DNA from: Escherichia phage C130_2 | Sequence record: MH363708 | Strand: one strand, 5' to 3' | DNA: 41,775 nucleotides | Position numbers and translations under genes: made by a program | The notes under the pieces: model-generated | What the model saw: only the letters and a program-made list of their open reading frames with translations | The model's database searches: none | Told to the model about the DNA's origin: nothing | In this document: positions 3,758-34,813 of the stretch, piece after piece | Position numbering within the stretch: the first letter of the stretch is position 1 | Layout of the letters: each line of letters starts with the position of its first letter

Positions 3758-3806
3758 AAATAGCACTTTTTGCTAAAACAGATTAATACAGACCATATAT
3801 AGTTAA
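3758..3806 (+). promoter_or_regulatory. Promoter-like bipartite element (site A) for the plus-strand early block
   Basis: AAATAGCACTTTTTGCTAAAACA (3758-3780), 18-bp spacer, CATATATAGTT containing a TATAGT -10-like hexamer; inverted-repeat centre about 42 bp upstream of the predicted start site. Confidence 0.5.
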
Positions 3807-3836
3807 CCCATCGAAACGAACAACGAGGCAGACAAA

Positions 3837-4004
3837 ATGAACTTTCCAAAAATCACTTACACCGCCAGCCGTAGCAAAAAATTCATCACCATTGAGCACG
3901 CGCCAAAATACGGCGTAAGCACCAAAGTAACGCGCAACGTTACCGGCAAACGTGAAGCGCGTCAGATTGCAAATGAGCTGGGCGGCATCTGCTGGAACTT
4001 CTAA
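3837..4004 (+). CDS. Hypothetical small basic protein (55 aa)
   Basis: ATG at 3837 with GAGG RBS 9 nt upstream; below the track size cut-off, translated manually (MNFPKITYTASRSKKF...ICWNF). Followed by a GGCCCC-TTCG-GGGGCC hairpin. Confidence 0.4.
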   Translation: MNFPKITYTASRSKKFITIEHAPKYGVSTKVTRNVTGKREARQIANELGGICWNF

Positions 4005-4012
4005 CCAACCAC

Positions 4013-4028
4013 GGCCCCTTCGGGGGCC
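4013..4028 (+). other. GC-clamped UUCG-tetraloop hairpin within the operon
   Basis: GGCCCCTTCGGGGGCC; no U-tract follows, so it is more likely an RNA stability or processing element or a weak attenuator than a full terminator. Confidence 0.35.
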
Positions 4029-4049
4029 ATATCAACTGAGGCAAAGACC

Positions 4050-4739
4050 ATGCAAAACAAAAAAGTATTCGTTAAAGAGGATCGCTATCTGGTGATCAAG
4101 CGCGCTGACCTGGAAGCGGCAACCGCTGCGGGGCTGCTGTCAGTTGGTCAGATTGCGATCCTGAATAAGATCCTTTGCGAGTCCAGCCGGATCCGCAGCA
4201 ACCGTGGCGCACGCCCGCTGCACGGCCTGTTTGTTGAAAATGACTGGCCTGAATACGACGCCGTTTTAAAGATGATTGCAGACCGCGTGGAAGGCGTGGA
4301 CGGCGCTGATAAGCAGGGGCCGATCCTTTACTGCATCGTTGACGCTGACGGCTTGCCATTCATGCAGGAATACTGCGTTGATCTGGATGCAGCCGCATTG
4401 CAAAAAGAAGTGGACGCGATGAACGAGCAAGACGGGATCCCCCCAGGTGGTGACGGCTTCCGCGTCGTGCCCCTTGAGGTGTACACCATTTCAGGCGCGC
4501 AACAACGCTGGGCCTGGTCAACGATCTTTGATCGCTTCCTGCGCACATTCCCTGAGCAAATGAACGTGCCCAACCGCAACGCAACCACGATGATTGATGA
4601 TCTGCTGGGTGAGTACGGCGAGATCCGCGATAATGCCCAGGCGGTGATCGACGAACTCGAAGAGGCGGCGAGCCATTCACCGGACGCCCGCCCAGCGATC
4701 AACAACGCGATCAAACTTCTCCGGGGTCTGCACAAATAG
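4050..4739 (+). CDS. Hypothetical early protein (229 aa), acidic
   Basis: Long ORF with GAGG RBS; no recognisable motif. Confidence 0.6.
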   Translation: MQNKKVFVKEDRYLVIKRADLEAATAAGLLSVGQIAILNKILCESSRIRSNRGARPLHGLFVENDWPEYDAVLKMIADRVEGVDGADKQGPILYCIVDADGLPFMQEYCVDLDAAALQKEVDAMNEQDGIPPGGDGFRVVPLEVYTISGAQQRWAWSTIFDRFLRTFPEQMNVPNRNATTMIDDLLGEYGEIRDNAQAVIDELEEAASHSPDARPAINNAIKLLRGLHK

Positions 4740-4780
4740 CACTTTTTGTTAAAACGATGGGATAATTACTATATATACTT
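4736..4780 (+). promoter_or_regulatory. Promoter-like bipartite element (site B)
   Basis: ATAGCACTTTTTGTTAAAAC, 18 bp, TATATATACT (TATACT -10-like), upstream of gene 4812. Confidence 0.5.
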
Positions 4781-4811
4781 ATCCCATCACTTACGAATGA
4801 GGGCAAACAAA

Positions 4812-5042
4812 ATGGCACGTTCAACGATTCGCGTTACCAACGATCAGGGCTTCGGCGGTTACTATGGCAACCTGCGCAAGTGGGAAGGCGTGAAGGCACG
4901 CGATCTGGCATGGCGTGAAGAGTTGGGCGCACCGGAAGCGGCCCAGGATCCAGACTGGTGGATCGACGAAACCACAACGCGCGGCGAGTACAACGCCCGC
5001 ACCCGTGCCCACGCTGCCAAATGGCGTGACGATTGGGCGTAA
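4812..5042 (+). CDS. Hypothetical small protein (76 aa)
   Basis: ATG at 4812 with GAGGG RBS; followed by hairpin GGTGCCCTTCGGGGCACC (5051-5068). Confidence 0.5.
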   Translation: MARSTIRVTNDQGFGGYYGNLRKWEGVKARDLAWREELGAPEAAQDPDWWIDETTTRGEYNARTRAHAAKWRDDWA

Positions 5043-5083
5043 TCAAACGCGGTGCCCTTCGGGGCACCAATGCTGGGGGATGT

Positions 5084-5428
5084 ATGGAAAAAATCGTTTA
5101 TGTGCTCATGAAGCGCCGGAAATTCTCGCAGGTGTCGCGCAATACCGCAGTTTTCGACGCGAACGGCTGCGCCCTGATCGACAAAATGATCCTGAGCCAT
5201 GCCACGCCGAAGGGCTGGAAAATGAAGCCGGTGTGGTCTTGCCGTGGCGAGCCTACTTTCTACGCTGCCGATTCTTACATGGTGTTTGATACCATCAAGG
5301 ATGCCGCAGAACATCTGCGCAAAGAGCTTGGCGGGGCTTATGCTGCGCTGACTCTGCAAGCGAAGCTGATCGCGGAGTTGTGCGATCAGTGCGATGAAAT
5401 TTACATGAGTGCAAAGGAGCCTGATTAA
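5084..5428 (+). CDS. Hypothetical protein (114 aa)
   Basis: ATG at 5084 inside track ORF 5033-5428; RBS-like GGGGG upstream. Confidence 0.5.
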   Translation: MEKIVYVLMKRRKFSQVSRNTAVFDANGCALIDKMILSHATPKGWKMKPVWSCRGEPTFYAADSYMVFDTIKDAAEHLRKELGGAYAALTLQAKLIAELCDQCDEIYMSAKEPD

Positions 5429-5688
5429 TGGCAAAGGTCAGTCTTATTGGCAACGCGGGCACCGGCAAGAAAACTGCCGTTTATAGTGTGACGCTGGACG
5501 GGTCGCCCCGTGCCTATGTGGTGGCAGGGCGTGAAATTAAGTACATGAGCGAACGACGCGGAAAGGGCGGGCGTATGCTGCGCCGCTGGCTTCCGGTGGT
5601 TCAAACGGCATTGCGTCGCCAGATCTCGGACGCGGTGCGGGAATATCAGATCGAAGAGGTGCGAAAGAGTGAAGAGGCGCAACCCTGA
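5428..5688 (+). CDS. Hypothetical small basic protein (86 aa)
   Basis: TAATG stop-start overlap with the previous gene; AAGGAG 8 nt upstream. Confidence 0.5.
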   Translation: MAKVSLIGNAGTGKKTAVYSVTLDGSPRAYVVAGREIKYMSERRGKGGRMLRRWLPVVQTALRRQISDAVREYQIEEVRKSEEAQP

Positions 5689-5956
5689 TCCGCATTCGTA
5701 CTGGAACCGCCGCCCATACCTTTTGAACAAAAGAAAGTCGCACCCTGGCGCGGTGTTTTGCAGGGTGTCCAGCGTATGCCCTGAAATGAATAAGCGCGGG
5801 CGGTTGTTTAAGCGCTGGATCGCCGCTGGCAGGTTGTACACGATGCACGGGATCTGCCTTCTGAGCGCATCAGGCCGCGTGCCCCATCTGCGCGAAGCGA
5901 TGCAAGAAGGCCGGTTATTTCTCCGCACCGATAAGGGCGGCAAAAACTTATATTAA
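5669..5956 (+). CDS. Hypothetical basic protein (95 aa), GTG start
   Basis: Track ORF starts on GTG at 5669 and overlaps the upstream gene by 20 nt; GAGG upstream. Start uncertain (internal ATG at 5786). Confidence 0.3.
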   Translation: MKRRNPDPHSYWNRRPYLLNKRKSHPGAVFCRVSSVCPEMNKRGRLFKRWIAAGRLYTMHGICLLSASGRVPHLREAMQEGRLFLRTDKGGKNLY

Positions 5957-5974
5957 TCAGTAGGAGCAAAGAAA

Positions 5975-6673
5975 ATGCGTATCACAAAGGCAATGCAGGA
6001 AACAATTTTCGAAAACATTATTGCAGACAATCACCCGCTGCGCGTCCGTGCCGATAAGGTGCGCTGGAACGTCGCGCGCATGGTGGCAGATCTGGTGCTG
6101 GAAGCCCGCGCAAAAAATGGGTTTAAATCCGACGCGGAGATCGGCGCGTTAATTGAAGAGGTGAAGGATCTTAATAAGCGCGGCAAAGATTTTTTGAATG
6201 TCTCAAACTCGTTTAATAAATTCCGTCTGGAAGGTGAGGGGGAAGAAAAATATTATTACGATTATAACCTTTATTTCACGGTTGGCGGGCAGAAGCGCGA
6301 AGCCTCTTTCCTCGGTGAGTTGGACAAGGATCACCGTCTGCGCGCCGGTATCATAACCCCAGGCGTTGGGCATGAGGTGGCGCGGCCTTACCTGGGCATG
6401 TTCACACCAACCGGACGGATCAACGTTCCTGCGGATCATTGGGTCATGGCGCGCTTGCAGGAGTTGGAAAGCGAAGTTGCAGCCATTAACGGTGAGCACA
6501 TAACGTTAAAAAGCACCGTCTTTGCAACCCTGAATAAATTCACTACGGTTAAAAAGCTGGTGGCACACTGGCCCGAAGTGGAAAAATACATTCCGAAGGA
6601 TCAGCCGGTAACGGGCACCGGCATTGCGATCAGCGTCGCGGATCTTAATGCGATGTGCGGCATTCCAAAGTAA
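5975..6673 (+). CDS. Hypothetical protein (232 aa)
   Basis: ATG at 5975 with AGGAG RBS; followed by an intrinsic terminator. Confidence 0.6.
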   Translation: MRITKAMQETIFENIIADNHPLRVRADKVRWNVARMVADLVLEARAKNGFKSDAEIGALIEEVKDLNKRGKDFLNVSNSFNKFRLEGEGEEKYYYDYNLYFTVGGQKREASFLGELDKDHRLRAGIITPGVGHEVARPYLGMFTPTGRINVPADHWVMARLQELESEVAAINGEHITLKSTVFATLNKFTTVKKLVAHWPEVEKYIPKDQPVTGTGIAISVADLNAMCGIPK

Positions 6674-6691
6674 AAATTATGACCGTCACGA

Positions 6692-6716
6692 AACCGCCAT
6701 TTGTGGCGGTTTTTTA
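6692..6716 (+). terminator. Rho-independent terminator
   Basis: CCGCCA-TTTG-TGGCGG stem-loop followed by TTTTTTATTTT. Confidence 0.6.
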
Positions 6717-6761
6717 TTTTGTGCTACCCTCAAGCCGTGATCAACCAGTCGGATTGAGGAA

Positions 6762-7061
6762 ATGAATAAACTTTGGGCATGGTTAAAGACTCGCGGGAGT
6801 AAAGCCCGTATTGTGTTAATCGGTGGGTTGGTAGCCTTCACGGCTTACATTCACTTTTCGGCGGATCGACTGCGTGAGCGTTTAACGATCCTTTGGGGCA
6901 CTTTCACTGCGACGGCTGGCGCGCTTAGTCTTGGGGATGTGGCGATCATTGTCGGTATTCTCTGCACAATCGGATCACTCCTTATTAACTGGTATTACAA
7001 GGCGCGCGATGATAAGCGGAAAGAGGCCATTTTCCGTAAAGGCAGGATCATTGATGAATAG
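6762..7061 (+). CDS. Holin, class II / pinholin-like
   Basis: 99 aa, two hydrophobic helices, highly charged C-terminus ([16 protein letters not shown]) resembling the tail of phage 21 S pinholin; overlaps the endolysin start; GAGGA RBS. Confidence 0.6.
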
Positions 7062-7545
7062 CAAATTGTTTACAAAATTCACGGCGGCACTTGGAGGCGG
7101 GGCGCTGGCTGTCGCCTTCGCTTTGCTGTCCGGTCAAAATGGGTTAGAGGGGCGTGAGTATATCCCTTATCAAGATATTGTGGGGGTCTGGACGGTCTGC
7201 GACGGTCACACCGGCCCCGATATCATCAAGGGCAAGCGGTACACGGATCGGGAGTGTGACGCGCTCACCAAAGCCGATTTAAAACGCATCGCCAGCCAGA
7301 TCGATCCCAATATCAAAGTTAAGTTGCCGGAAACCGTTCACGCGGCGATCTATACCTTCGCCTATAACGTGGGCGCGGGTGCCTTCAACAAGTCAACCAT
7401 GCTGCGCAAAATCAACGCCGGTGACACCATCGGCGCTTGCAATGAGTTGCAACGCTGGGTTTACGCTGGCGGCAAGAAGTGGAAGGGGTTGATCAACCGC
7501 CGTGAGGTTGAAACAACCGTTTGCAAATGGAGCCTTACCAAATGA
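7054..7545 (+). CDS. SAR endolysin (T4-lysozyme / GH24 family, phage 21 R-like)
   Basis: N-terminal signal-anchor-release segment ([18 protein letters not shown]), then [25 protein letters not shown]...[12 protein letters not shown], closely resembling phage 21 R lysozyme as recalled. Confidence 0.85.
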
Positions 7546-8078
7546 CGTGGGCCGCTGTAGTTGCAGCGATCCAACGGTGGTGGAAGCCAGCCGCGCTGCT
7601 GTTGCTGCTGGGTGGATCCTTCGCCGCCGGCACGGCCTGGAATGATCGGGGCTGGCAAGCAAAATGGGCTGATCGGGATGCAAAAGAATCCTCCCAGGAA
7701 ACGAACGCGCAGACCGCAGCCCGCATGATTGAACAAGGGCGAACCATTGCCCGTGAAGAGGCTGTGAAAGATGCACAACAACAAGCGGCAAAAGCTGCTG
7801 CCACTGCTGCTGGCCTGTCTGCCACTGTTAGCAAGTTGCAGCAACAAGCCGGAAAACTCGCAACCCGCCTGGACGCCGCAAAGCACACCGCAGATCTTGC
7901 CGCTGCCGTCGCAAGCAAGACAACCGGCGCAAACGCCGCAATGCTCGCCAACATGCTCGGAAGCCTTGCAGAAGAAGCTAAATATTATGCTGGAAGATCT
8001 GACGAAAGCTATCGGGCCGGAATGACGTGTGAAAGGATTTACGATCAGGTGCGGGAGTCAAACAACAAGGGGCCATGA
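7542..8078 (+). CDS. i-spanin (Rz-like)
   Basis: ATGA overlap with the endolysin stop; N-terminal TM helix then Ala/Gln-rich coiled-coil periplasmic domain; last gene of the lysis cassette. Confidence 0.65.
7771..8025 (+). CDS. o-spanin (Rz1-like lipoprotein) embedded in the +1 frame of the i-spanin gene
   Basis: Lies entirely within 7542-8078 in another frame; signal peptide with lipobox LLASC, proline-rich mature part with Cys residues; the classic lambda/P21 nested arrangement. Confidence 0.6.
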
Positions 8079-8092
8079 TGGCCCCTTTTTTT
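8069..8092. terminator. Bidirectional intrinsic terminator between the lysis cassette and the convergent Ig-like gene
   Basis: GGGGCCATGATGGCCCC followed by T7 on the plus strand and a U-rich stretch on the minus strand. Confidence 0.6.
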
Positions 8093-8888
8093 ATGCTGCT
8101 GGGTTAACTGTGACCGTGCAAACGTTGCTGGTAACGGTTTTCGGCGCGTTGTTGTTCGCGCTGGTAACGGTGCAACGGAAGCGCTTGCCGCTGTCGGATT
8201 CCTGCGGGGTGGCAAATGTCAGCGTTGGGCCGGTAGCGCCAGTGATGCCGGACGCGCCCCCGTTCGTTACGTTCGTCCAGGTGGCGCCGTCCGTGGACTG
8301 CTGCCACTGGTACGTGTAAGGCAACAAGCCGTCAGCCGCCACAACCGCCAGGCTTGCTGAGGTGCCAGCCGTCCAGGTTGCAGTCGCTGCAAGGTTCGTG
8401 GTCAGGCGGATCGCAACTTTGGTGCGCTCGCGCAGTGATTCCACGGTTTGCCCTGCGGAGTCGGTAACACGGCAGAAGTAATCACCGTTGTTGCTCGCTG
8501 CATAAGACGGGATGTTATAGGTATTCTGATCCGATCCGATTGGGTTATCAGTCGAAGAAGCGCGGCGAAACCATGCGTAATGATACGGCGGGATCCCGCC
8601 TTCCATTTCCACGGTGAAAGTTTTGTTTGCGCCCAGCGCCAGATAAGTTGCCGTGGCGTCACTGCCGTTATTGCCTGGCAGGTTGGTTGCGAAGGTGAGC
8701 GGGGGCACCTGGTTTGGATCCAGTTCGATATAAAACATACCAGTTGGATCCAGCGTGAGTGCTGCCTCTTGCTCTGCGGTCAGGTAGATAACGGAAAGTT
8801 GCGGAGTCTGCCCGCCGTCCGGCCCCGCAATGCGGGTGACTTTCCAGCCCTTAAGGGCGCGATCAGGGTGTCGGTGCCAAAAGCCCAT
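8091..8888 (-). CDS. Ig-like (I-set type) tandem-domain protein, possible virion decoration or adhesin
   Basis: 265 aa; two repeats with the Ig signature (PYHYAWF...GDYFCRV and PYTYQWQQSTDG..W...DSGKRFRCTV); AGAGG RBS. Confidence 0.55.
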   Translation of the reverse strand: MGFWHRHPDRALKGWKVTRIAGPDGGQTPQLSVIYLTAEQEAALTLDPTGMFYIELDPNQVPPLTFATNLPGNNGSDATATYLALGANKTFTVEMEGGIPPYHYAWFRRASSTDNPIGSDQNTYNIPSYAASNNGDYFCRVTDSAGQTVESLRERTKVAIRLTTNLAATATWTAGTSASLAVVAADGLLPYTYQWQQSTDGATWTNVTNGGASGITGATGPTLTFATPQESDSGKRFRCTVTSANNNAPKTVTSNVCTVTVNPAA

Positions 8889-8975: not shown

Positions 8976-9287
8976 TCATAGTTTACCTGCCTCCCTTAAG
9001 GTCTGGCGTCTGTTATGCACCTGCGCGAACGTCAGCCCCATTTCTTCGGCAATCTGTCGGCTGGTCTTGTCAGCCTTCACACCGGCGATGATCTGCCGGT
9101 CTTCCTCGGTAGTCCACCAGTGGAAAGCGCGGGTGATCGATATCTCAACCCCCAGCGCGCGTGCGCGTCCGTAAACGGATTGGCGCGGGCGTCCAATGTG
9201 CGCCACGATATCTGGCCCAGGCAGGGTGCCCGCATTGTCCAGGATGAATTGATCTTCCTTCGGTGTAAACGGCTTACCGCGTGGCAT
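8976..9287 (-). CDS. Myb/SANT-like helix-turn-helix DNA-binding protein
   Basis: ATG at 9287 with AAGGGGG RBS; WTTEEDRQII and FTPKEDQFIL motifs typical of Myb-like repeats. Confidence 0.45.
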   Translation of the reverse strand: MPRGKPFTPKEDQFILDNAGTLPGPDIVAHIGRPRQSVYGRARALGVEISITRAFHWWTTEEDRQIIAGVKADKTSRQIAEEMGLTFAQVHNRRQTLREAGKL

Positions 9288-9456
9288 TCTGGCCCCCTTC
9301 TGGCTGATCGTCTGCGAAGCGTAGCGCCTTTTGGCGCAACCCATATTTTGCCAGCGCGCGGATCAGATCGGCCCAATCAAAGCGGCTGCGGAAAACCGCT
9401 TCGGGATTGTCGCCGTTAGCCAGGCGCTTTAGCTGCGTGTGCGTGATTCGTTTCAT
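9274..9456 (-). CDS. Hypothetical small protein (60 aa)
   Basis: Internal ATG at 9456 of track ORF 9274-9582 with GAAGG upstream; overlaps the next gene by 14 nt. Confidence 0.3.
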   Translation of the reverse strand: MKRITHTQLKRLANGDNPEAVFRSRFDWADLIRALAKYGLRQKALRFADDQPEGGQNATR

Positions 9457-9710
9457 AGCCCCTTCAACCTTTTTGGATTGCTTTTTGATTTGGCAATTTC
9501 GGTTTTTATGCCTTCTTTGCCCGCCCGTGTTGCAACTGCAATGCGTGTGGTTTTGCGCGGCTTTTCGTTGAGGTATACGCATTCACCATCGTTGATCACG
9601 GCGATATCGGTCACATCAAAGACCGCCGCGATCTTCGCTATATCGTCAGCCATTCCGGCTTGCTTCACCGCTTGCCATACCTCTTGCCGGTTGCCCTGTC
9701 TGAATCGCAT
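9453..9710 (-). CDS. Hypothetical small protein (85 aa)
   Basis: ATG at 9710 preceded by GGAGG 9 nt upstream, but it overlaps 9646-10083 by 65 nt; an alternative start at 9653 gives an 8-nt overlap. Confidence 0.35.
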   Translation of the reverse strand: MRFRQGNRQEVWQAVKQAGMADDIAKIAAVFDVTDIAVINDGECVYLNEKPRKTTRIAVATRAGKEGIKTEIAKSKSNPKRLKGL

Positions 9711-10083
9711 TTAAAAACGCCTCCGCGTGTCGCACTACCTGCGCGCACATATCCGCATCGAATAAGGCAATGTGACAATCAACCTTCTCGATCCCCAACT
9801 GCTTTGCCAGCCAGGCATAAGCAACCGCCCTTTTTTTATACCCGTTGCGCCAGATCGGATCAAAGGCGGCGTGCGCACGGTTGCGGGCCTTTTTGGTCTT
9901 CGCGTCAGCGGTATTGCCCAGCGGGCGATCTGATCGCGGGTGGCAACCAACCGATGCCCCGCACGCGCAGCGATAAGCGAGAATGTGCTCAAGGTCGGGG
10001 CGGTGCGGGTACATCACTTTCCCCGTGGTCAAATAGGCGGTTTTCACACCGCCGCAGATAGCGCAATCAATAGCCTTAGTCAT
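9646..10083 (-). CDS. Zinc-ribbon protein (CxxC...CxC), nin-region-like
   Basis: ATG at 10083 (TAATG overlap with the upstream gene); N-terminal CAICGG...CACGASVGCH cysteine cluster. Confidence 0.5.
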   Translation of the reverse strand: MTKAIDCAICGGVKTAYLTTGKVMYPHRPDLEHILAYRCACGASVGCHPRSDRPLGNTADAKTKKARNRAHAAFDPIWRNGYKKRAVAYAWLAKQLGIEKVDCHIALFDADMCAQVVRHAEAFLNAIQTGQPARGMASGEASRNG

Positions 10084-10319
10084 TAGCAATCCTTGTGATC
10101 ATCCCACGGCCCGAAGCCGCCAACGTAAACAAATTCACGGCCCATGCCGCCGCCGTCCTGCCGGTCATGATAGGCCGCATTCTGGCCCGTTCTCTTCTCC
10201 TGCTTCATTGCCTTGCAGGACTTGGAGCAAAAGCGGCCCCAACCGCGCCGCAGGTCAACGGCGCGCACTTCATGCGGTTTTTTGCACCACTCGCAAGGTT
10301 TAGTGACCATCTTTGCCAT
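10083..10319 (-). CDS. Small C4 zinc-finger protein
   Basis: 78 aa; CEWCKKP...CSKSCK motif. Confidence 0.5.
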   Translation of the reverse strand: MAKMVTKPCEWCKKPHEVRAVDLRRGWGRFCSKSCKAMKQEKRTGQNAAYHDRQDGGGMGREFVYVGGFGPWDDHKDC

Positions 10320-10321
10320 GA

Positions 10322-10636
10322 TTACTGATCCCCCCAGCCGTAAGCGGCTTTTAAATTTTCGTTAGCCTTCTGCATTTGTGCGTGGGCTTCGCGCAGCGTA
10401 TCGCGTTTCACTTCCACTGACGCGGCGTAAAGGCGGGTACGGTTGCGAAGGCTGCAAGCGTTGTCGAAGTTGACGCGCGCCAGCGCCAGCGCCAGTGGAT
10501 TAACCACGCGGAGCGGTTCGGATCCTTCGCGGCTTCCGGTGAATACCAACGCTTTTGCGCGGTAGATCTCGCAGCCCGCAAAGGCTGCTTTCTTGCCCCA
10601 ATGTTTAGCGCGTAATTCCTGGATAGTTGCTTTCAT
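10322..10636 (-). CDS. Hypothetical protein (104 aa)
   Basis: ATG at 10636 with GGGAGG RBS; first gene downstream of promoter-like site C. Confidence 0.5.
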   Translation of the reverse strand: MKATIQELRAKHWGKKAAFAGCEIYRAKALVFTGSREGSEPLRVVNPLALALARVNFDNACSLRNRTRLYAASVEVKRDTLREAHAQMQKANENLKAAYGWGDQ

Positions 10637-10660
10637 CTGTCTGCCTCCCGTGTGGTTGAT

Positions 10661-10710
10661 GGGTTAACTATATATGGTCATTATGCCGGATGTTTAGCAA
10701 AAAGTGCTAT
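10661..10710 (-). promoter_or_regulatory. Promoter-like bipartite element (site C)
   Basis: Minus strand ATAGCACTTTTTGCTAAACA, 18 bp, CATATATAGTTAACCC; the 16-mer CATATATAGTTAACCC is identical to that at site A. Confidence 0.5.
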
Positions 10711-10713
10711 CAA

Positions 10714-10734
10714 CAAAAAACCGCCCGAAGGCGG
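10714..10734 (-). terminator. Intrinsic terminator (UUCG tetraloop hairpin plus U-run)
   Basis: Minus strand CCGCC-TTCG-GGCGG followed by TTTTTTGTTG, directly after the stop of gene 10735-11529. Confidence 0.6.
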
Positions 10735-11529
10735 TTAATATGGCACGTTGGCATTTGAGAGGAAAACGGCTTCGGCAAAGCCTCGCGGCGTCACACTCCT
10801 GATCGCCTTTGTCCTGGCATTCCGGCCCCCTGCGGCGTACCAGCCAGGATTGCAGCGCTTCCCGTTGATCAGCTGTATGGGCACCGGATTTTTTGGAGGC
10901 ATCACGAATGCTTCATTGCACCAAATGCCGGTTTTCTTCGGGTACGCATCGCGCGGCGGGTAGATCGTCGGGTAGATCGGGTGAGCGTCCACCTCTGGCA
11001 GATAGCCGCCATACTCGAACGGGTCGAAGGTGTGATCCGGCCTTCTCCACTGCGTGTTAAGCGTGTTAACTGCCGGATTCTCAAGCATCCACGGGATCTG
11101 CTTGCCGTCGCCGTTCTGCATGTCGCAGTAACCAGCAACCCACATCACCAGCTTTGCCAGCCTGATCGCGTCCTGCTGATCCTGTCGGCGGTTCGGGTAG
11201 TTTGGATGCGGGCGGCGCTCGCTGGTTGGCAAGTGCTTATCATCTGGATGATAGAACCACTTCGCGCCGGTGGTGGTTAGGTACGTGCATTCAGCGAAGC
11301 TGGCGACGAACTCAACGCCAGGGCCAACCATGCTGGCGATCTCCTGCGCTTGATTCACGATATCATGAGCCTTGAACCACATCCCCACGCGAACGATCAG
11401 AGGATTGACCGGATCGCGGTGAATGCCGTCAGGGTGTTTGCCGTCGAATAACCAACATTCATAACCTGCCCCCAACCAGGGGGCGGGCATAATGTCCGAT
11501 TCGTTAAAAAGGAAAATGGCTTTGCGCAT
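10735..11529 (-). CDS. Hypothetical enzyme-like protein (264 aa), function unknown
   Basis: Long ORF coupled to the upstream gene; His/Asp/Cys-rich; contains ENP and a C-terminal PRGFAEAV segment only faintly like C5-methyltransferase motifs. No confident assignment. Confidence 0.5.
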   Translation of the reverse strand: MRKAIFLFNESDIMPAPWLGAGYECWLFDGKHPDGIHRDPVNPLIVRVGMWFKAHDIVNQAQEIASMVGPGVEFVASFAECTYLTTTGAKWFYHPDDKHLPTSERRPHPNYPNRRQDQQDAIRLAKLVMWVAGYCDMQNGDGKQIPWMLENPAVNTLNTQWRRPDHTFDPFEYGGYLPEVDAHPIYPTIYPPRDAYPKKTGIWCNEAFVMPPKNPVPIQLINGKRCNPGWYAAGGRNARTKAIRSVTPRGFAEAVFLSNANVPY

Positions 11530-11533
11530 ATTT

Positions 11534-11746
11534 TTACGCCTGATTTTGCGCGCGGTCTAATTCGCGCTCGGTTGCGGTGATCACCACATAATCATGCTTT
11601 TCCATGCTGGCGAAACGAGCCAAAGCACCATCGCTTAAAAGCTGGAAAATAAAGTGATCGGAAACGCGGCTTGTTGATTCAGCCAGATCGCGCAACTGCT
11701 CAAGCTGGGTGACGGTTAATTGTGATGCGTGGATTGCAAATATCAT
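11534..11746 (-). CDS. Hypothetical small protein (70 aa)
   Basis: ATG at 11746 with AAGGA RBS; overlapping stop-start with the upstream gene. Confidence 0.4.
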   Translation of the reverse strand: MIFAIHASQLTVTQLEQLRDLAESTSRVSDHFIFQLLSDGALARFASMEKHDYVVITATERELDRAQNQA

Positions 11747-11958
11747 TGTGCGTGATCCTTTACTGATTGGCGATATTCCGCAAGGTCTTTGCGGGCCATT
11801 TCGGGCCATGATGAAACCGGTGCAACGCGGTATTCATCGAAATAAGAAGCATCAAGACTTTTTGCAAATTCTTCTGCCTCTGCAACGGTGCTGCATTCGC
11901 CGGAACCGATCAGGAATCCGACGATAAAATAAACCCACTGACGTTGTTTATGATCCAC
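11743..11958 (-). CDS. Hypothetical small membrane-associated protein (71 aa), GTG start
   Basis: GTG at 11958 preceded by AAGGGG; hydrophobic N-terminus WVYFIVGFLIGSG. Confidence 0.4.
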   Translation of the reverse strand: MDHKQRQWVYFIVGFLIGSGECSTVAEAEEFAKSLDASYFDEYRVAPVSSWPEMARKDLAEYRQSVKDHAQ

Positions 11959-11968
11959 TTATAACCCC

Positions 11969-12553
11969 TTAAAGGCGCGCTGGCATTACGGCATATTCAG
12001 CAACGCCGTTGTGCGATTTGATTTCGACAAATGCGGCGGTTGTCGCATCCTGTAAAGTAATTTTTACGATACTTGATTTCATCTGCAATGCCTTGCAAAT
12101 GCGCGTGATTACTGCGAAGTATTCGACGTTGAAGCCGATAACCTTTACACCTTCGCGCTTGCTGTCAACTTCCGTAAACACTCGGCGCAAATCAGGATAA
12201 CGCCCATCAACAAGATCCACGGTGCCCACTGCCACGCGCGCTGCCTTCAAATCAACGTCTTTGAGATCTTCCGGCTTATCGTATGCCAGCGGGAGCCAGT
12301 ACACGATCCCCGCGTCAACGTCGATTGCCGCAGTCTCAATGCCGCGCATGTTCGGCACCTTCGACACTTTCAACAATAAGCCGGTTTCCGGCGCGTTGAT
12401 CAGGTCATGCGTCAGACGAAAGGCGCGGTGCCCGTCCGTTGCCTGGATCTGGTTGCCGATGAAATGCAGGGCGTTAAGGTAATAACGCACATCGTTTTGC
12501 GCCTGGCATAAATGAGCCGCTTTAATGTGCTGCGCTTTTGCAAAAATAATCAT
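11969..12553 (-). CDS. DnaN-like protein: truncated beta sliding clamp homolog (domains II-III only)
   Basis: 194 aa. Blocks NDVRYYLNALHF..ATDGHRAFRL, DLVDGRYPDLRRVF, IGFNVEYF and C-terminal AEYAVMPARL match, as recalled, the E. coli beta-clamp segments QDVRYYLNGMLF..ATDGHRLAV, KLVDGRFPDYRRVLP, IGFNVSYV and AAYVVMPMRL. Has its own AGAGG RBS and ATG, with no domain I upstream. Confidence 0.7.
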   Translation of the reverse strand: MIIFAKAQHIKAAHLCQAQNDVRYYLNALHFIGNQIQATDGHRAFRLTHDLINAPETGLLLKVSKVPNMRGIETAAIDVDAGIVYWLPLAYDKPEDLKDVDLKAARVAVGTVDLVDGRYPDLRRVFTEVDSKREGVKVIGFNVEYFAVITRICKALQMKSSIVKITLQDATTAAFVEIKSHNGVAEYAVMPARL

Positions 12554-12600
12554 AGTCTTTGCCTCTTCTGGTAAAGCCCCATTGCTGGGGCTGTATCGCG

Positions 12601-13329
12601 TTATAAGACGCTTGCGGAAGCGTCCAGCATATCTTGCTTAGTAAGATAATCCGTCTTCACTGGCCCGCGTTTGCGTGGCTTAATCAGGAATAGTGAACTT
12701 GCCTTACTGTTTTTCCGGCCTTCCACTTCGGTTGCCGCATTCACGAATGCTACGCGCCCGTTATGGAATTTTTCTTCGCCTTTGGCGTCGGTGCCGTAAT
12801 AGCCCATGATGTTTACAATCTCGCTGCACGCCTGGATCATGTCATAGAACCATTGCGGCGAGTGGTCATGATTCAGAAGCATAACCGTTGTCACGCCATG
12901 CTGTTTTGCATTTCGTGCTGCTGCTGCAACCCAGGGGATCGGGTCTGCATACGGTGGATTACACCAGACGGTTTCCCCCTCCTTGCCCCATGCCACCTGC
13001 GGATCCAGCGCGTTTTGCTGCTCGTCGATAAACTCAACGCAAAGGGCGTTTCCGGCCTCTGCCGCAACGTCACGCGCGAACGGCCCCCAGCGGTGATCGG
13101 CATAGTTAAACAACCATTTTGGGGTGCGCCATTTCTGCCGGATAGCGTCAGGGGTTTTGCTCTTCGCAAAGCGTCGGCCCGTAATGACCTGATCCACTTC
13201 CTCCGGGGTTGCCGCCAGCGCGCCAGCGCCAGCCGCTTTCAATGCCTCTTCCAGCACCGCTTGCGGGATCGCAAAGTCTGCTGCCACCTGCGCAAGATCA
13301 ACGGTCTTGCTGTCGTTTTCGTCTTTCAT
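12601..13329 (-). CDS. DNA N6-adenine methyltransferase (phage Dam-like)
   Basis: Catalytic motif WCNPPY; ATG at 13329 overlapping the dUTPase stop (TGATG). Confidence 0.8.
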   Translation of the reverse strand: MKDENDSKTVDLAQVAADFAIPQAVLEEALKAAGAGALAATPEEVDQVITGRRFAKSKTPDAIRQKWRTPKWLFNYADHRWGPFARDVAAEAGNALCVEFIDEQQNALDPQVAWGKEGETVWCNPPYADPIPWVAAAARNAKQHGVTTVMLLNHDHSPQWFYDMIQACSEIVNIMGYYGTDAKGEEKFHNGRVAFVNAATEVEGRKNSKASSLFLIKPRKRGPVKTDYLTKQDMLDASASVL

Positions 13330-13781
13330 CACTTCGCCTTTTTATCAGTTGAGCCAAAGCCGTTGGCACCGCGTGCCGTGTCTTTGATCGTTTCCACTTC
13401 CGCGATCTGCCACTGCGGCGCGTCAACGATCATGCCCTGGGCAATAGCCGTGGTTGGGTCAATGGCTGGATATTCGCCGGTAGGGCGATCAGAAACGATT
13501 TTTACTTTCACCTCTCCGGTATAGTCGCTATCGATCACCCCCACGCAATTTGACAAGCGCGCATCCTGCTTGAATCCGTGCCCGCTGCGGCTGTAAATCA
13601 TCAGGGCTTTGCCCTTCGGAATGTCGAATACCAGCCCCGTTGAGAAGATCAGGGCGTTGATTTTTTCGTCGTAACTGCTTTCGATCCCGTAAATGTCGAA
13701 ACATGCTGATCCCTCGGTTGCATATTCTGGCAGACGCGCCAGGGGGTTTAACTTCTTAACGCCTAACACATTTGATCCCAT
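13329..13781 (-). CDS. dut: dUTP diphosphatase (dUTPase)
   Basis: Motifs SRSG, GVIDSDYTGE and C-terminal RGANGFGST characteristic of trimeric dUTPases; GAGG RBS. Confidence 0.85.
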   Translation of the reverse strand: MGSNVLGVKKLNPLARLPEYATEGSACFDIYGIESSYDEKINALIFSTGLVFDIPKGKALMIYSRSGHGFKQDARLSNCVGVIDSDYTGEVKVKIVSDRPTGEYPAIDPTTAIAQGMIVDAPQWQIAEVETIKDTARGANGFGSTDKKAK

Positions 13782-13811
13782 TGTTGGTGCCTCGTTGGTG
13801 AGTGGTGAAAC

Positions 13812-13857
13812 ATACTATATATAAAGACTTTGCAAACGCTTTAGCAATTCGTGCTAT
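13812..13857 (-). promoter_or_regulatory. Promoter-like bipartite element (site D)
   Basis: Minus strand ATAGCACGAATTGCTAAAGC, 18 bp, TATATATAGTATG, upstream of dUTPase. Confidence 0.5.
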
Positions 13858-13939
13858 TCTCTAACTGTCTTTGTTTCCTTCTGCTTTTTTTAGCCAGCCA
13901 GCTAACGCCGCGCCTTCTCCCTTTGGTTGCGGCTTTTTT

Positions 13940-14782
13940 TCAGCTTAACCACGCATTCATTGCCCCTGTGATATCCAGACCGGCGCGCACCCTGCCGCAA
14001 TCCTGGTATAAATAGATCTCGTCCTGATCCAGCGCCACCAATCGCACTTCACGATCACCCCTGTAGCGTGCTGAAACCTCGCGGCAGTTCAGCGGGGTAA
14101 AGCCGATCCATATCTCGCAACCCTTCGCGGGGCCGTCATGCTCTGCCATTGCCACGGCACAAAGGGGATCGCTGATCAGGTAGATTGGCCCGTCTTGCAG
14201 CCCCTTTGCTGGGTGGATCACTGCCACTGCGCCCCAGGTGCGAAGACCTGCCGCAAAGTGTACTGATCGATCAGGGTCTACCCGCGCCAGATTGCAGAAT
14301 TGAAGCGACGCGCCCGACTCGGCAACCTTCCTGCATGGCAGATAGGCTGATCCCTTTCTCCCCCCAGCACGCGCCATGCTCACAACTTTATCGTGCGGGA
14401 TCTCCGCGCTGTTCCTGGTGGTCTTGCTCTTCGATATGGCTTTAGCCTCTCTGGCGACGCTCTCGCGCCGTTCTGGCGTCATGCCCCCCAGCCAATCACC
14501 CAAATCATTGATCGCCTCGTTAAACGGCTGCATACGCGCTTTCATGAACCAATAAAGCCCATCATGCGAGCCGCCGCAGTCGCCGGAACAATACGCGAAA
14601 CCTTCCTCGCGCTTTTGCGGTTTTTTGTGGCCCCAGCGGAAGCGATCAACGCCGCCGCAGATGGGGCAAGATTGGTGGTTGCCGTCAAAGTTTTTGTGCT
14701 GCCAGCCGCACAACTCGATCAACGCCTTTTCCCACTTATCCCGCATTCCTCGCAAAACTGTTTGCTTGTCATGGATTGCCAT
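13940..14782 (-). CDS. Putative DNA primase (zinc-ribbon plus TOPRIM-like)
   Basis: 280 aa; CPICGG...YCSGDCG zinc-binding motif and an acidic LVALDQDE segment; divergent from the helicase gene. Confidence 0.45.
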   Translation of the reverse strand: MAIHDKQTVLRGMRDKWEKALIELCGWQHKNFDGNHQSCPICGGVDRFRWGHKKPQKREEGFAYCSGDCGGSHDGLYWFMKARMQPFNEAINDLGDWLGGMTPERRESVAREAKAISKSKTTRNSAEIPHDKVVSMARAGGRKGSAYLPCRKVAESGASLQFCNLARVDPDRSVHFAAGLRTWGAVAVIHPAKGLQDGPIYLISDPLCAVAMAEHDGPAKGCEIWIGFTPLNCREVSARYRGDREVRLVALDQDEIYLYQDCGRVRAGLDITGAMNAWLS

Positions 14783-14845: not shown

Positions 14846-16903
14846 ATGGCAACCGCTGACACGTTAGAAAGCACCTTCGCAGAAAGGTTGATGGAAACGA
14901 TAGAAGACCGGATCGCCCGCACGCCGATTGAAGATCTGATCCGGCAGTTTGGCGATCTGCCGCTGGATCCTTACCCCTATCAGTGGGCCGCTTATGACGC
15001 GGTGGCGCAGTGCATCCGAAAATACCCAGGGCCGGTGATCGTTGAAGCGGCAGTGAGCGCGGGCAAAACGATCATGATCTCCATGCTGGCGCGCCGCATC
15101 ATGCAGTTGCCGTGGGATGATGAAAACCCAGCGAAAAAGCACCGCGCTTGTGTGCTGTCTCGCCAGGCTGAGATCATCGATCAGGATGCGCAGGAATTGT
15201 GGAATTTTCACGTAAACAACTCCATTTTCTGCGCTGGCCTGGGCAACAAAAAATCAACCCATTATCCCATCGTGTGCGGCAGTGAAGGCACGATGGTTAA
15301 CAGTCTGTTTGACAAGCTGGCAGACTTCGCCCCGCTCTTCCTGATCATTGACGAATGCCACCACGTCAACATTGACGATCTGATCGAATCCGAAGAAAGG
15401 ATGGTGCCCGACTACCTCAAAGACGAAAACGGCGCACTTGTTCTGGAAGACGGCGAGCCTGTCCAGATTGGCGAGCACAAAGGCGAGAATTACGAGGAAA
15501 TGATCGCCGCAAAGCGCAACGCTTACACGATCATAATCAGGACTTTGCAGGAGCGGTGCCTTAAGGTTCACGGGTGCCGGTTGCGCGTGATCGGTTACAC
15601 CGGCACCCCTTACCGTGGGGTTGATTCCATCGTCAATGAGGATTACGAAACGCCAGGATTTTGGCGCAAGACGGTGATCCGCATCACGACAAATTACCTG
15701 GTAAAAGTCGGTTCAGTTGTGCCCACTTACTTTGGCGTGTCGTCGCTGGGTTATCAGTTGGATCAGTTCGCCAGCTTCACTGAGTTTGGGGCGAAGGATT
15801 TTAGCAACAACGAAATGATCGCCATGCAGCGGCAGATCCTGAAAGATAAAAAGCTGACCTGGAAGATCATGCAAGAAGTGGTGGAACTCACCAAAGAGCG
15901 CAACGGGGTTTTAGTCACCTGCGCTGGTGTGGCCCACTGCAAAGAGGCCGCAGCGGCCCTGCCGGACGGCATAAGCTATGCGATCATCACGGAAGACACC
16001 GGCCCGAAAAAGCGAATGGAGATCATCGAAGACGCGAAGGCCGGAAAGATAAAATTCATCTTCCAGGTTAACGCCCTTACAACGGGCGTGAATGTGCCCC
16101 TGTGGGATACTTCCGTTATCCTGCGCCGTATTGGGTCACTCACCCTGTTGGTGCAACTGCTGGGCCGTGGGATGCGTATTTTAAAGGATTGGATGATTGA
16201 AGCCGGATTCAAGAAGAGCGATCACCTCGTCCTGGACTATTCGGGCACTATGGCTGCAATGGGCGGGCTGTATGAGGATCCGATCCTTGAAGATTACGTG
16301 TACACCGTGGACAAGGTGAAAGAGGATTGGAAGGAATGCAAATACGGGCACAAAAACGGCAAGCACGCGCGCCGCTGCCGCCACATTCACCCCAACGGCG
16401 AGCGCTGCGATGATTTCTTTGTTTATAAGCTCTGCGAAGACGTCAAAGACCGCAGCACGGGCCGCATCTTGCAGAAGGGCTGCGGGGCCAAAAATGACAC
16501 CGTGGCGCGCCAGTGCCGCTGCTGTGGCAACCTCCTGATCGATCCAAACAAAAACCTATCCGGCGAGCATTACACGGATAAAGATTATTGCGACGTGATC
16601 AGCTTTACGCCGCAGGTTGGCAACGGTGGATCCTTCGCTATTGAGTATCAACTCATGAAGGATGGGATCCAGTTTAAGGCGTGGGAAATTCACTGGCCCA
16701 ACTCCAAAAACCCTGGGGCGAAACAGCTATGGAACCAGTTTTTAAAAGAGCATGTTTTCATGCCGGAGCACCGCGCCACGTTGAAGGCGTGCAAATCTGC
16801 CGAAGCCGTGTTGGCTAACGTATCGTTGATCCTCCCCCCAAAGCGGGTGACGCATCGTAAAATGGGAAGCGGCAAAGATAACGTTTACAAAAAGGTATTT
16901 TGA
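14846..16903 (+). CDS. SF2 DEAD/DEAH-box family helicase with C-terminal zinc-ribbon
   Basis: Walker A AAVSAGKT, Walker B / DEAH-like LIIDECHH, C-terminal Cys clusters (CRHIHPNGERC, CRCCG). Confidence 0.8.
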   Translation: MATADTLESTFAERLMETIEDRIARTPIEDLIRQFGDLPLDPYPYQWAAYDAVAQCIRKYPGPVIVEAAVSAGKTIMISMLARRIMQLPWDDENPAKKHRACVLSRQAEIIDQDAQELWNFHVNNSIFCAGLGNKKSTHYPIVCGSEGTMVNSLFDKLADFAPLFLIIDECHHVNIDDLIESEERMVPDYLKDENGALVLEDGEPVQIGEHKGENYEEMIAAKRNAYTIIIRTLQERCLKVHGCRLRVIGYTGTPYRGVDSIVNEDYETPGFWRKTVIRITTNYLVKVGSVVPTYFGVSSLGYQLDQFASFTEFGAKDFSNNEMIAMQRQILKDKKLTWKIMQEVVELTKERNGVLVTCAGVAHCKEAAAALPDGISYAIITEDTGPKKRMEIIEDAKAGKIKFIFQVNALTTGVNVPLWDTSVILRRIGSLTLLVQLLGRGMRILKDWMIEAGFKKSDHLVLDYSGTMAAMGGLYEDPILEDYVYTVDKVKEDWKECKYGHKNGKHARRCRHIHPNGERCDDFFVYKLCEDVKDRSTGRILQKGCGAKNDTVARQCRCCGNLLIDPNKNLSGEHYTDKDYCDVISFTPQVGNGGSFAIEYQLMKDGIQFKAWEIHWPNSKNPGAKQLWNQFLKEHVFMPEHRATLKACKSAEAVLANVSLILPPKRVTHRKMGSGKDNVYKKVF

Positions 16904-17370
16904 TGAACCGGAAAGAAACAGCGCATTGGATCGAATACTGGACGGAATGGGATGAATCACAATTCCTGCCGTCCGAAGATGCAGACGCGGAAACGTGCTT
17001 CCATTGGGTTACTGAGTTTTTCCCTGATCTGCTGATCTTCCACCCCGTCAACGAGTCTGGCGGGGGCCGGAATCCGCAGTATGAGCAAAAGTTAAACGCA
17101 ATGGGCCGCGTCAAAGGGATCATGGATTATATCTTGCTGGAGCCGTTCGGCCCTTACCCCCACGCGGTGATCGAACTCAAGCGCCGGAACAAGAAGAAAA
17201 GCCGATTGAAGCCGGAGCAAAAAGAGCAACTGGAGCGCGCCCGCAGGAAAGGTGCATTTTGTGCTGTTTGTTGGGGGCCGGATGCTTTCAAGGCTTGCAT
17301 TCATGAATTAATGATGCTTAAATCTGCTCATGTTCACGAAACAATGAAGGGCAAAGACAATGCAGACTGA
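16903..17370 (+). CDS. VRR-NUC domain nuclease
   Basis: TGATG overlap with the helicase stop; PD-(D/E)XK-type motif (IMDYILLEP...AVIELKR) as in VRR-NUC proteins. Confidence 0.55.
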   Translation: MNRKETAHWIEYWTEWDESQFLPSEDADAETCFHWVTEFFPDLLIFHPVNESGGGRNPQYEQKLNAMGRVKGIMDYILLEPFGPYPHAVIELKRRNKKKSRLKPEQKEQLERARRKGAFCAVCWGPDAFKACIHELMMLKSAHVHETMKGKDNAD

Positions 17371-18367
17371 AACCGCACAACCTTACTTGCAGGTGTTTGA
17401 ATCGCACGAATTGAGCAACGAGGAATATCACGCGGAAACCGATCATATTTCGGGATCCTCGCTGCATGAACTTCTGATCCGCAGCCCTGCTGGCTGGCGC
17501 TTCAAAAAGGATAAAGAGGCGAAGGAAAAGGCGAAGGAAAGCACCGGCGCGAAGCAAAAGCCGCTGACGTTCGGCACAACGGGCCATACCTGTATGCTTG
17601 AGCCTGATCGCTTCGATCTGGAATATTACCGGATGCCGGATCCCGACGATTACCCCGACGCGCTCACGTCCGTTGCTGCGGTTACAAAGTGGCTTAAGGA
17701 TAAAGGGATCGCAGGTTACTCTGGGAAGAAAATGCCGGAACTTTACCCGCTGGTTGATATGACCGGCGAAGACGTGATGATCTGGCAACGCCTGTGGGAA
17801 CATCACCAGGGGATCGCCGGTGATCGTGAGCAAGTACCGGCAAAGGATTTTGACCGCGTGTTAATGATGCGTGACGTGCTTTTGCAGAATCAGGACTTTC
17901 ACCGCATTATCACCGAAGGCACGCCGGAACTTTCCATTTTCGCTGAGATCGACGGCGTAAAAGTAAAAGTGCGTCTTGACCGCATCACCGCTGACCGTGA
18001 GATCATCGACTATAAAACCACGCAAAGCGCGGAGCCGGAAAAATTCGGGCGGCTGGCTTTTGACAATGGTTATTATTTGAAAATGGCGTTGCAGCATGAC
18101 GTATTTTCTATCGCATACGGCGCACCAAAAGCCGTGACATTATTAGCGCAGGAGAAAGAAGAGCCATTCCTTGCGGAAGCATTCGAATTGACCGAAGAGC
18201 AATTATTATTGGGCCGCATGATGTACCGCACCGCATTACAGATTTATAAGGCGTGCCGTGATGCTAATAAGTGGCCTTCTTATTCTCGCGGTCAACGTAG
18301 AATTAAACTTCCGACGCCTGGCTATATTCAAGCGCGTTACCCTGAATACTTTAAAGCGGAGAAATAA
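17360..18367 (+). CDS. Putative PD-(D/E)XK exonuclease (recombination exonuclease partner of ERF)
   Basis: 335 aa; GAAGG RBS; motif RLDRITADREIIDYKTTQ; immediately upstream of the ERF gene. Confidence 0.5.
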   Translation: MQTETAQPYLQVFESHELSNEEYHAETDHISGSSLHELLIRSPAGWRFKKDKEAKEKAKESTGAKQKPLTFGTTGHTCMLEPDRFDLEYYRMPDPDDYPDALTSVAAVTKWLKDKGIAGYSGKKMPELYPLVDMTGEDVMIWQRLWEHHQGIAGDREQVPAKDFDRVLMMRDVLLQNQDFHRIITEGTPELSIFAEIDGVKVKVRLDRITADREIIDYKTTQSAEPEKFGRLAFDNGYYLKMALQHDVFSIAYGAPKAVTLLAQEKEEPFLAEAFELTEEQLLLGRMMYRTALQIYKACRDANKWPSYSRGQRRIKLPTPGYIQARYPEYFKAEK

Positions 18368-18369
18368 AG

Positions 18370-19092: not shown

Positions 19093-19095
19093 CAT

Positions 19096-19623: not shown

Positions 19624-19629
19624 CTGGTC

Positions 19630-19650
19630 GGCCCCTTCGGGGGCCATTTT
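19630..19650 (+). terminator. UUCG-tetraloop hairpin with short U-run (partial terminator)
   Basis: GGCCCC-TTCG-GGGGCC followed by ATTTT. Confidence 0.45.
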
Positions 19651-19663
19651 GTAGGGCTGGCCC

Positions 19664-34774: not shown

Positions 34775-34813
34775 GCCCGCCGAAGCGGGCTTGTCTTTAG
34801 CAAAAAGTGCTAT
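34775..34813 (-). promoter_or_regulatory. Inverted-repeat motif copy (site E) plus UUCG hairpin at the portal / insert junction
   Basis: Minus strand ATAGCACTTTTTGCTAAAG overlapping the portal stop codon, followed by GCCCGC-TTCG-GCGGGC; no TATATAG element here. Confidence 0.4.

Follow-up and report, generated by a model that had tools for sequence, protein, structure and literature searches.

The 41,775-nucleotide sequence of Escherichia phage C130_2 (MH363708), here called the window, carries four lysis genes densely packed on the plus strand at 6762-8078, encoding a holin, an endolysin with a predicted signal-anchor-release (SAR) segment and two spanins, the gene for one of them embedded in that for the other (Table 1). 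This region very probably constitutes a self-contained mosaic lysis module, holin, SAR endolysin and embedded spanins, bounded by two intrinsic terminators. By sequence comparison, the parts of the mosaic are a holin core of the HP1 family with an N-terminal anchor, a SAR endolysin of the R21 type and a spanin pair of the phage N15 gp55 type. The reading is carried by the gene structure, the protein families, the SAR segment, the lipobox, the catalytic residues and the conservation of a terminator and an adjoining motif; pinhole formation, the topology of the holin and promoter activity are predictions added to it. All parts of the holin, SAR endolysin and embedded two-component spanin cassette proposed in the initial annotation were recovered, with refined gene limits, and a purine-rich ribosome-binding site precedes each of the four starts. 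The overlaps of 8 nt and 4 nt between the coding sequences make translational coupling of the cassette genes probable. NCBIfam gave an informative name to none of the four proteins.

The endolysin matches the GH24 lysozyme family PF00959 (E 7.8e-41, 139.7 bits against a cut-off of 22.3) as well as phrog_7 (endolysin). For phage 21, the curated lysis region OL657228 (S21-R21-Rz-Rz1) was used as the reference, and each protein was compared with it; the endolysin and R21 have 63% identity over 134 residues (E 8e-67) and share the SAR segment and the catalytic triad. Its best matches among solved structures are R21 (PDB 3hde, E 1.1e-62) and RrrD (4zpu, ~1e-62), and both alignments begin at endolysin residue 8, so that they take in the SAR segment. 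This segment of 19 residues, preceded by K4 and K8, is 63% Gly/Ala/Ser/Thr with a mean hydropathy of 1.72, compared with 65% and 1.99 for the SAR segment of R21. The triad E32, D41 and T47 (Glu-8 residues-Asp-5 residues-Thr) corresponds to R21 E35, D44 and T50, and G14-G16, E32, D41 and T47 are invariant across 7 aligned endolysin homologues. As judged from these alignments, the endolysin is a true homologue of phage 21 R and is predicted to be of the SAR type, as its strong resemblance to P21 R had been described from the start.

The i-spanin matches PF10721 (DUF2514, E 9.9e-46) and phrog_312 (Rz-like spanin, E 7e-56), and has an N-terminal transmembrane segment at about residues 13-33 (hydrophobic peak at 14-33), the remainder being a hydrophilic, Ala/Gln-rich periplasmic domain with a single cysteine, Cys161, in a conserved MTCERIY. 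The o-spanin matches phrog_11621 (Rz-like spanin, E 1.7e-10), and no Pfam match was found for it. The nested lipoprotein with the lipobox LLASC that had been suggested in another frame of the i-spanin gene is indeed there as an open reading frame (ORF) in the +1 frame; the lipobox LLAS-C, with Ser at +2, follows a basic n-region (MHNNKRQK), 22 residues precede the Cys, and the mature protein is proline-rich, with a conserved QCSPTC. The o-spanin is a predicted outer-membrane lipoprotein precursor. The nested ORF and its lipobox are intact in 11/11 related loci examined, phage N15 included, with lipoboxes that vary among the relatives (LLASC, LLAGC, LLIAC, LLTAC, LVSC and LSAGC) and signal sequences that also differ. 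The cysteine motifs of both spanins are kept in all the related loci and are candidate intermolecular disulfide partners. The nested gene covers 0.43-0.90 of the i-spanin length, a position range of the kind reported for ~70% of embedded spanins (PMC6139136).

The i-spanin is ~70% identical to gp55 (DUF2514) of phage N15 (genes 53-55, NC_001901), and the pair is of the N15 gp55/DUF2514 type. N15 also has an embedded 84-aa o-spanin with the QCSPTC core, unannotated in the RefSeq record: at 2068-2322 of NC_001901.1, an 84-aa lipoprotein ORF (MPKRKQLPRVMLLLVWLALLVSC...) lies in the +1 frame inside gene 55 and is homologous to the window o-spanin. In N15, too, annotated rho-independent terminators flank the cassette. 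Unlike the spanins, the N15 lysozyme is just 31% identical to the window endolysin, and no similarity was found between the N15 gp53 holin and the window holin.

With phage 21 the cassette shares the gene order of holin, SAR endolysin and i-spanin with a +1-embedded o-spanin. However, the designation "phage 21 type", originally given to the whole cassette, proved too broad. BLASTP found no similarity of the window spanins to P21 Rz and Rz1 (E 3.0 and 4.0), and the holin falls under the cut-off of the P21 S family (PF04971). The window holin also has 99 aa against 71/68 aa in S21, has no dual start and carries an extra basic tail and helix, and the cassette lies convergent with the structural genes, outside any pR'/Q late-promoter context. 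On these comparisons, the designation fits the architecture and the endolysin, not the ancestry of the holin or the spanins.

The holin matches PF16080 (HP1 holin family, E 2.7e-16, 59.8 bits against a cut-off of 28.8) over residues 44-84, and also phrog_20 (holin). The PF04971 profile reached 18.5 bits, its cut-off being 26, over residues 60-88 only, and BLASTP against S21 gave 11/29 identical residues (E 8e-05) in the last helix and charged tail only, where the C-tail aligns with S21 YFKIREDRRKAA. The pinholin-like C-terminal charge pattern described initially agrees with this C-tail alignment; the profile scores place the protein in the HP1 family, not in the P21 S family. Three hydrophobic segments were found (17-32, 41-57 and 60-79), between an N-tail with five basic and no acidic residues (+5) and a highly charged C-tail with 8 K/R (lysine or arginine). 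AlphaFold2, run with a 34-sequence alignment, predicted helices at 13-31, 37-54 and 57-98 with a pLDDT of 71 (moderate confidence). The window holin conserves the PF16080-type core of a weakly hydrophobic helix, an SL(N/G)D turn, an xAIIVGIxCTxG..NWYYK helix and a charged tail; in the 34-sequence alignment, G65 is invariant and G53, A61, I66, Y78 and Y79 are at least 90% conserved.

An exhaustive HMMER search for the holin gave 47 cluster representatives, two of which, the top two matches, were spurious and were rejected as low-complexity repeat proteins: P0008 (1,654 aa, 17 matching stretches) and P0009 (1,789 aa, 17 stretches), the latter by a hit profile near-identical to that of P0008. Nearly all the remaining representatives have 57-85 aa and two hydrophobic segments. 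These relatives begin M-[D/E]-[K/R] where the window holin reads A34-D35-R36, the start of S21 68 being similar, and from residue 34 the window core aligns over its full length with the HP1-family holins of 57-85 aa; in the window holin, the family core is therefore preceded by an N-terminal extension of 34 residues. Its sequence places it in the HP1 holin family, with a class II or pinholin-like core behind this extension. The extension, a basic tail and a 16-residue hydrophobic helix, occurs in 4 of ~45 cluster representatives, its other carriers being the diverged P0010, P0012 and P0041. In each of these three, the holin gene adjoins a lysozyme with a SAR-like N-terminus; a DUF2514 gene is third in the P0010 and P0041 loci, and the P0012 contig ends before a third gene is identifiable. 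The anchored variant thus recurs in at least four diverged clusters, each time beside an endolysin with a SAR-like N-terminus.

HP1 hol, the founder of PF16080 in Haemophilus phage HP1 (hol/lys), has been reported from experiments to be pinholin-like, with a SAR endolysin as its partner (PMC7312051), and a pinholin-like role for the window holin is supported by family membership for that reason. The label "pinholin" rests on this membership, and pinhole formation by the window protein is predicted by analogy. Unlike the window holin, with its added 34 residues, the HP1 holin was predicted in silico to have one or two hydrophobic segments (PMC7312051). The PF04971-type layout of two transmembrane domains (TMDs) with a short flippable N-terminus was not found in the window holin, which has three hydrophobic segments. 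Neither was a dual-start holin/antiholin motif, the ORF having a single Met. A shorter holin of 63 aa and two segments, made from a second start inside the gene, was considered and rejected: codon 37 is CTG, GTG, ATG or ATA across lineages, and no ribosome-binding site conserved across lineages was found for it. The plus-strand block 3838-6673 yielded no further membrane protein that could act as an antiholin.

Topologies of the holin were compared by the number of K/R per face (positive-inside rule). With the N-terminus inside, helix 1 spanning the membrane, helix 2 periplasmic, helix 3 spanning and the C-terminus inside, 13 K/R lie inside and 3 outside. An N-in arrangement with helices 2-3 as a hairpin and helix 1 interfacial is favoured (its count was not tabulated). 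The three-pass arrangements place 11 K/R inside and 5 outside when the N-terminus is out, and 5 inside and 11 outside when it is in.

Two points weigh against a pinholin acting as in phage 21. In phage 21, activation requires transfer of the N-terminus and TMD1 to the periplasm, a flip that is slowed by as little as one additional positive charge at the N-terminus (bioRxiv 10.1101/2021.04.20.440580). In the window holin, the SAR-like helix 41-57 sits behind the 16-residue helix and the +5 tail, and therefore would not be able to flip out as S21 TMD1 does; by this analogy, the extension appears incompatible with the phage 21 activation route, and the trigger may differ. Furthermore, SAR endolysins also work with large-hole holins, N4 gp61 having complemented both holin types. 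Both points would suit a large-hole or otherwise different holin in place of a pinholin, whose N-terminal anchor gives it a topology and a trigger unlike those of S21, as would the score below the P21 S family cut-off, the three hydrophobic segments, the +5 N-tail, the lack of a dual start and an N-terminus that, held in the cytoplasm, would keep helix 41-57 from leaving N-terminus first. This alternative is nevertheless unlikely, since the core from residue 34 aligns fully with two-segment HP1-family holins, the HP1 founder is experimentally pinholin-like, and the holin is invariably partnered with an endolysin having a SAR-like N-terminus. A slightly better, still doubtful, possibility is that the protein represents a distinct sub-class of HP1/S21-type holins, in which the two-segment core is fused to an N-terminal cytoplasmic anchor. 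If so, the N-terminus of this sub-class could not cross the membrane, and the SAR-like first helix of the core would have one of two lasting positions: in the periplasm, should the added helix be membrane-spanning, or fixed within the membrane, should the added helix lie at the interface. The timing used by phage 21, through N-terminus-first externalisation of TMD1, would then be inoperable, and anchored holins would need a different trigger.

Regarding the limits of the module, the upstream intrinsic terminator was located by pattern scan at 6690-6713 plus the T-run (6692-6716 in the initial annotation), and minimum free energy (MFE) RNA folding gave a 12-bp stem. The position of the cassette outside the structural operon and 3' of this terminator was upheld by both the terminator scan and the gene layout. 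The regions upstream of the holin were aligned from six lineages, with holin identity to the window from 41% to 92%. A GC-rich hairpin and T-run stand at this position in every lineage, with stems that differ (CCGCC/GGCGG, GCGCC/GGCGC and GCCCC/GGGGC). Compensatory changes were counted in 2/5 pairs, a count limited by alignment indels, and the argument for conservation rests on each lineage having its own hairpin and T-run. Directly 3' of the terminator, 37-46 nt before the start codon, all lineages have a short motif (versions TGCTACCCT, TGCTAACCT, TGCTATCCT and TGCTACGAT) in which TG, T, A and the final T are invariant, the rest of the spacer having diverged. At the other end, the terminator hairpin follows at once after the i-spanin stop and is common to the cassette and to a convergent gene for a Hoc-like protein; the pattern scan scored this hairpin on both strands, its T-run being clear on the plus strand but weak (GTTGTTTGAC) on the minus strand.

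The TG, T, A and final T are the critical positions of the extended -10 sigma-70 promoter (TGnTAnnnT). Because the conserved positions of the motif coincide with these, a promoter of the cassette's own is favoured, although with a little less than an even chance: a candidate and probably weak extended -10 promoter for the sigma-70 RNA polymerase of the host, just 3' of the insulating terminator. Several observations tell against it, as the candidate -10 hexamer TACCCT is weak and without a -35, a consensus promoter scan did not call the candidate extended -10, and TGNTANNNT is not enriched genome-wide (30 matches against 39 expected). The proposal made at first, that lysis timing may depend on read-through or antitermination, stands as one option but not as the sole one, the conserved TGCTAnnnT fitting an own promoter. 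According to it, the cassette has no promoter of its own, and its expression depends entirely on the promoters at the head of the plus-strand block, through transcripts that partly read through the 6690-6721 terminator or pass it by regulated antitermination; we regard this as possible but clearly below even. The cassette is co-oriented with the genes at 3838-6673, promoter-like sites (a TAGCA-N5-TGCTA palindrome with a TATAGT -10) at 3761 and 4737 precede the block, the intergenic gap is short, with just 40 nt from the motif to the holin ATG, and the holin gene of phage N15 is also preceded by a terminator. However, the 12-bp hairpin is strong in the MFE fold, and every lineage keeps a hairpin; relatives of the Kosakonia phage Kc259 type have entirely different upstream promoters and genes, another replication module and no palindrome; the one non-coding element conserved in addition to the hairpin carries the critical extended -10 positions; and an antiterminator gene was not identified.

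The conserved CCTC of the motif could also act as an anti-Shine-Dalgarno (anti-SD) sequence, a leader hairpin masking the ribosome-binding site of the holin for translational control like that of lambda sdi. The window leader does fold CCUCAA/UUGAGG, sequestering GAGG at -11.7 kcal/mol, and analogous SD-masking hairpins with different sequences occur in two other lineages (loci L013, z = -3.8, and L004, z = -2.75). Nonetheless, the window hairpin is not significant (z = -1.5; 18/200 shuffles fold as well), no such hairpin is present in loci L009, L011 and L016, and L016 keeps TGCTAnnnT without the CCTC. As the cause of motif conservation, a hairpin significant in only 2/6 lineages, the window excluded, was set aside as a weak rival and is quite improbable. 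Two other roles for the motif were rejected. As a repeated phage-specific promoter, TGCTAnCCTC has a single exact copy, and its one-mismatch matches are at chance level (9 against 6.1 expected). As a half-site of TAGCA-N5-TGCTA, the holin-upstream TGCTA would not account for the Kc259-type relatives, which keep the motif yet lack the palindrome, and the holin site has no TATATA/TATAGT box such as lies ~20 nt downstream at the palindrome sites.

By homology, lysis would proceed as follows. The endolysin would be exported by Sec, its Gly/Ala-rich SAR segment tethering the inactive enzyme in the inner membrane. The holin would build up in the inner membrane and then trigger, collapsing the membrane potential, upon which the SAR segment would exit the bilayer and the endolysin would refold and degrade the murein. 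The i-spanin/o-spanin complex, released from the murein mesh, would finally fuse the inner and outer membranes. If the cassette has its own weak promoter, it would be chiefly the build-up of holin, and not a late-operon switch, that determines when lysis occurs.

Table 1. Coordinates of the lysis cassette and of other features in the 41,775-nucleotide window.
Feature	Position	Strand	Remarks
Holin gene	ATG 6762 to TAG 7061	+	99 aa; GAGGAA 5 nt before ATG
Endolysin gene	ATG 7054 to TGA 7545	+	163 aa; 8-nt overlap with holin gene (ATGAATAG)
i-spanin gene	ATG 7542 to 8078	+	178 aa; ATGA overlap (4 nt) with endolysin stop
o-spanin gene	ATG 7771 to 8025	+	84 aa; wholly within i-spanin gene, +1 frame
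Intrinsic terminator after Nmad5 gene	6690..6721	+	GC-rich hairpin GAAACCGCCAtttgTGGCGGTTT then TTTTTTATTTT
Conserved motif TGCTACCCT	6722..6730	+	candidate extended -10 (TGnTAnnnT), 40 nt before holin ATG
Intrinsic terminator, bidirectional	8067..8087	both	9-bp stem AAGGGGCCATGATGGCCCCTT; closes cassette and Hoc-like gene
Nmad5-domain gene, directly upstream of cassette	5975-6673	+	PF18757, E 3.4e-29
Hoc-like immunoglobulin (Ig)-domain gene, convergent with cassette	8091-8888	-	phrog_2973, E 4e-52
Short block ending in lysis cassette	3838-8078	+	other genes of unknown function except Nmad5 gene
54-aa ORF heading that block	3838-4002	+	good ribosome-binding site
Replication and recombination genes	8976-14782	-	
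Replication and recombination genes	14846-20478	+	
Structural operon, terminase to tail	~40124 to 20731	-	syntenic with Kc259
Palindrome copies	1330-1344, 3761-3775, 4737-4751, 10695-10709, 13842-13856, 34798-34812, 37100-37114		TAGCA-N5-TGCTA

The window begins and ends with the same 285 bases (1-285 and 41491-41775), and because of this it is a complete genome of ~41.5 kb, circularly closed or terminally redundant; ORFs near the window ends are duplicated or split owing to this identity. The source is a podovirus of Enterobacteriaceae of roughly 41.5 kb. The cassette had been assigned to an "early-strand block", a term that is not supported by its surroundings: the upstream genes are of unknown function save the Nmad5 gene, and the promoter-like sites heading the block also occur inside the structural operon. 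The adjacency of Nmad5 gene, terminator and holin gene is maintained within the lineage of the window, and the Nmad5 domain may point to modification of DNA or nucleotides in this group of phages. On the other side, ~12 kb of replication genes lie between the Hoc-like gene and the other genes of the structural operon in this genome. Relatives retain a convergent Ig-like gene beside the cassette, including those with a wholly different replication module around it. The triad of holin, lysozyme and DUF2514 genes recurs in distant phage backbones, and in one distant phage it lies instead 3' of the tail genes on the same strand.

Among the relatives, the closest database record is that of Stutzerimonas phage vB_SstS_STP9 (OR754315; 93-96% identity), which has the same cassette at 96% nucleotide identity; the record is unannotated, naming neither holin nor o-spanin. 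OR754315.1 is named as a Stutzerimonas stutzeri phage and flagged UNVERIFIED_ORG, and the stated host is doubtful. The more distant Kosakonia phage Kc259 (MW258712) has a holin (72% protein identity), an endolysin (77%) and a spanin (71%), with the cassette also convergent, outside the structural operon and beside an Ig-like gene, but it has a different replication module and no TAGCA-N5-TGCTA sites. In its record, the holin and i-spanin are annotated merely as hypothetical proteins and the o-spanin is unnamed. A 92%-identical holin (P0002), named "HP1 family phage holin" at NCBI, is assigned to Enterobacter hormaechei, and the hosts of other relatives are Kosakonia, Escherichia and Salmonella.

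The window also contains a 15-bp oriented palindrome, TAGCAC-TTTT-TGCTA (TAGCA-N5-TGCTA), in 7 copies against 0.73 expected, a number reached in 0/100 shuffles. All the copies are intergenic, each oriented toward the downstream gene, and are found in the replication and structural regions alike. A TATATA/TATAGT or TATATG box follows 20-25 nt after the palindrome at five sites, a start codon 50-63 nt after it at 6/7 sites, and its centre near -41.5 has the geometry of a class II activator. The palindrome is probably the binding site of a phage-encoded dimeric regulator, and it is absent from the Kc259-type relatives. An identical 22-mer, GACCATATATAGTTAACCCATC, follows two of the sites (3791-3812 on the plus strand and 10658-10679 on the minus strand), and the two copies resemble a promoter core that has been duplicated, one at the head of the plus-strand block and the other at the head of the gene at 10322-10636. 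Within another site, at TTG 4746, starts the mechanically called ORF 4746-5042 (+); its true start is likely the in-frame ATG 4812, preceded by GAGGG and giving 76 aa, and a 76-aa gene called in relatives matches this start. A GC-rich hairpin, GGCCCCTTCGGGGGCC, lies at 4014-4029, between the 54-aa ORF and the next gene at 4050, and its sequence is found again at 19630-19645.

The lysis cassette is ordinary, near-identical copies being already in public databases, and current models of phage lysis are unchanged by these findings. One gain lies in annotation: the records of Kc259 and STP9 lack annotation of the holin and of the nested o-spanin, that of N15 lacks the o-spanin, and the cassette is a mosaic, not "P21-like". 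The sole element beyond routine interest is the anchored holin variant, a modest curiosity of topology, which offers a natural test of whether externalisation of the N-terminus is essential for triggering in the pinholin family. The conserved order of terminator, TGnTAnnnT, cassette and terminator suggests that the module moves between backbones as an autonomous, insulated transcription unit, and such mobility would help to explain why the same triad is found both within and outside late operons.

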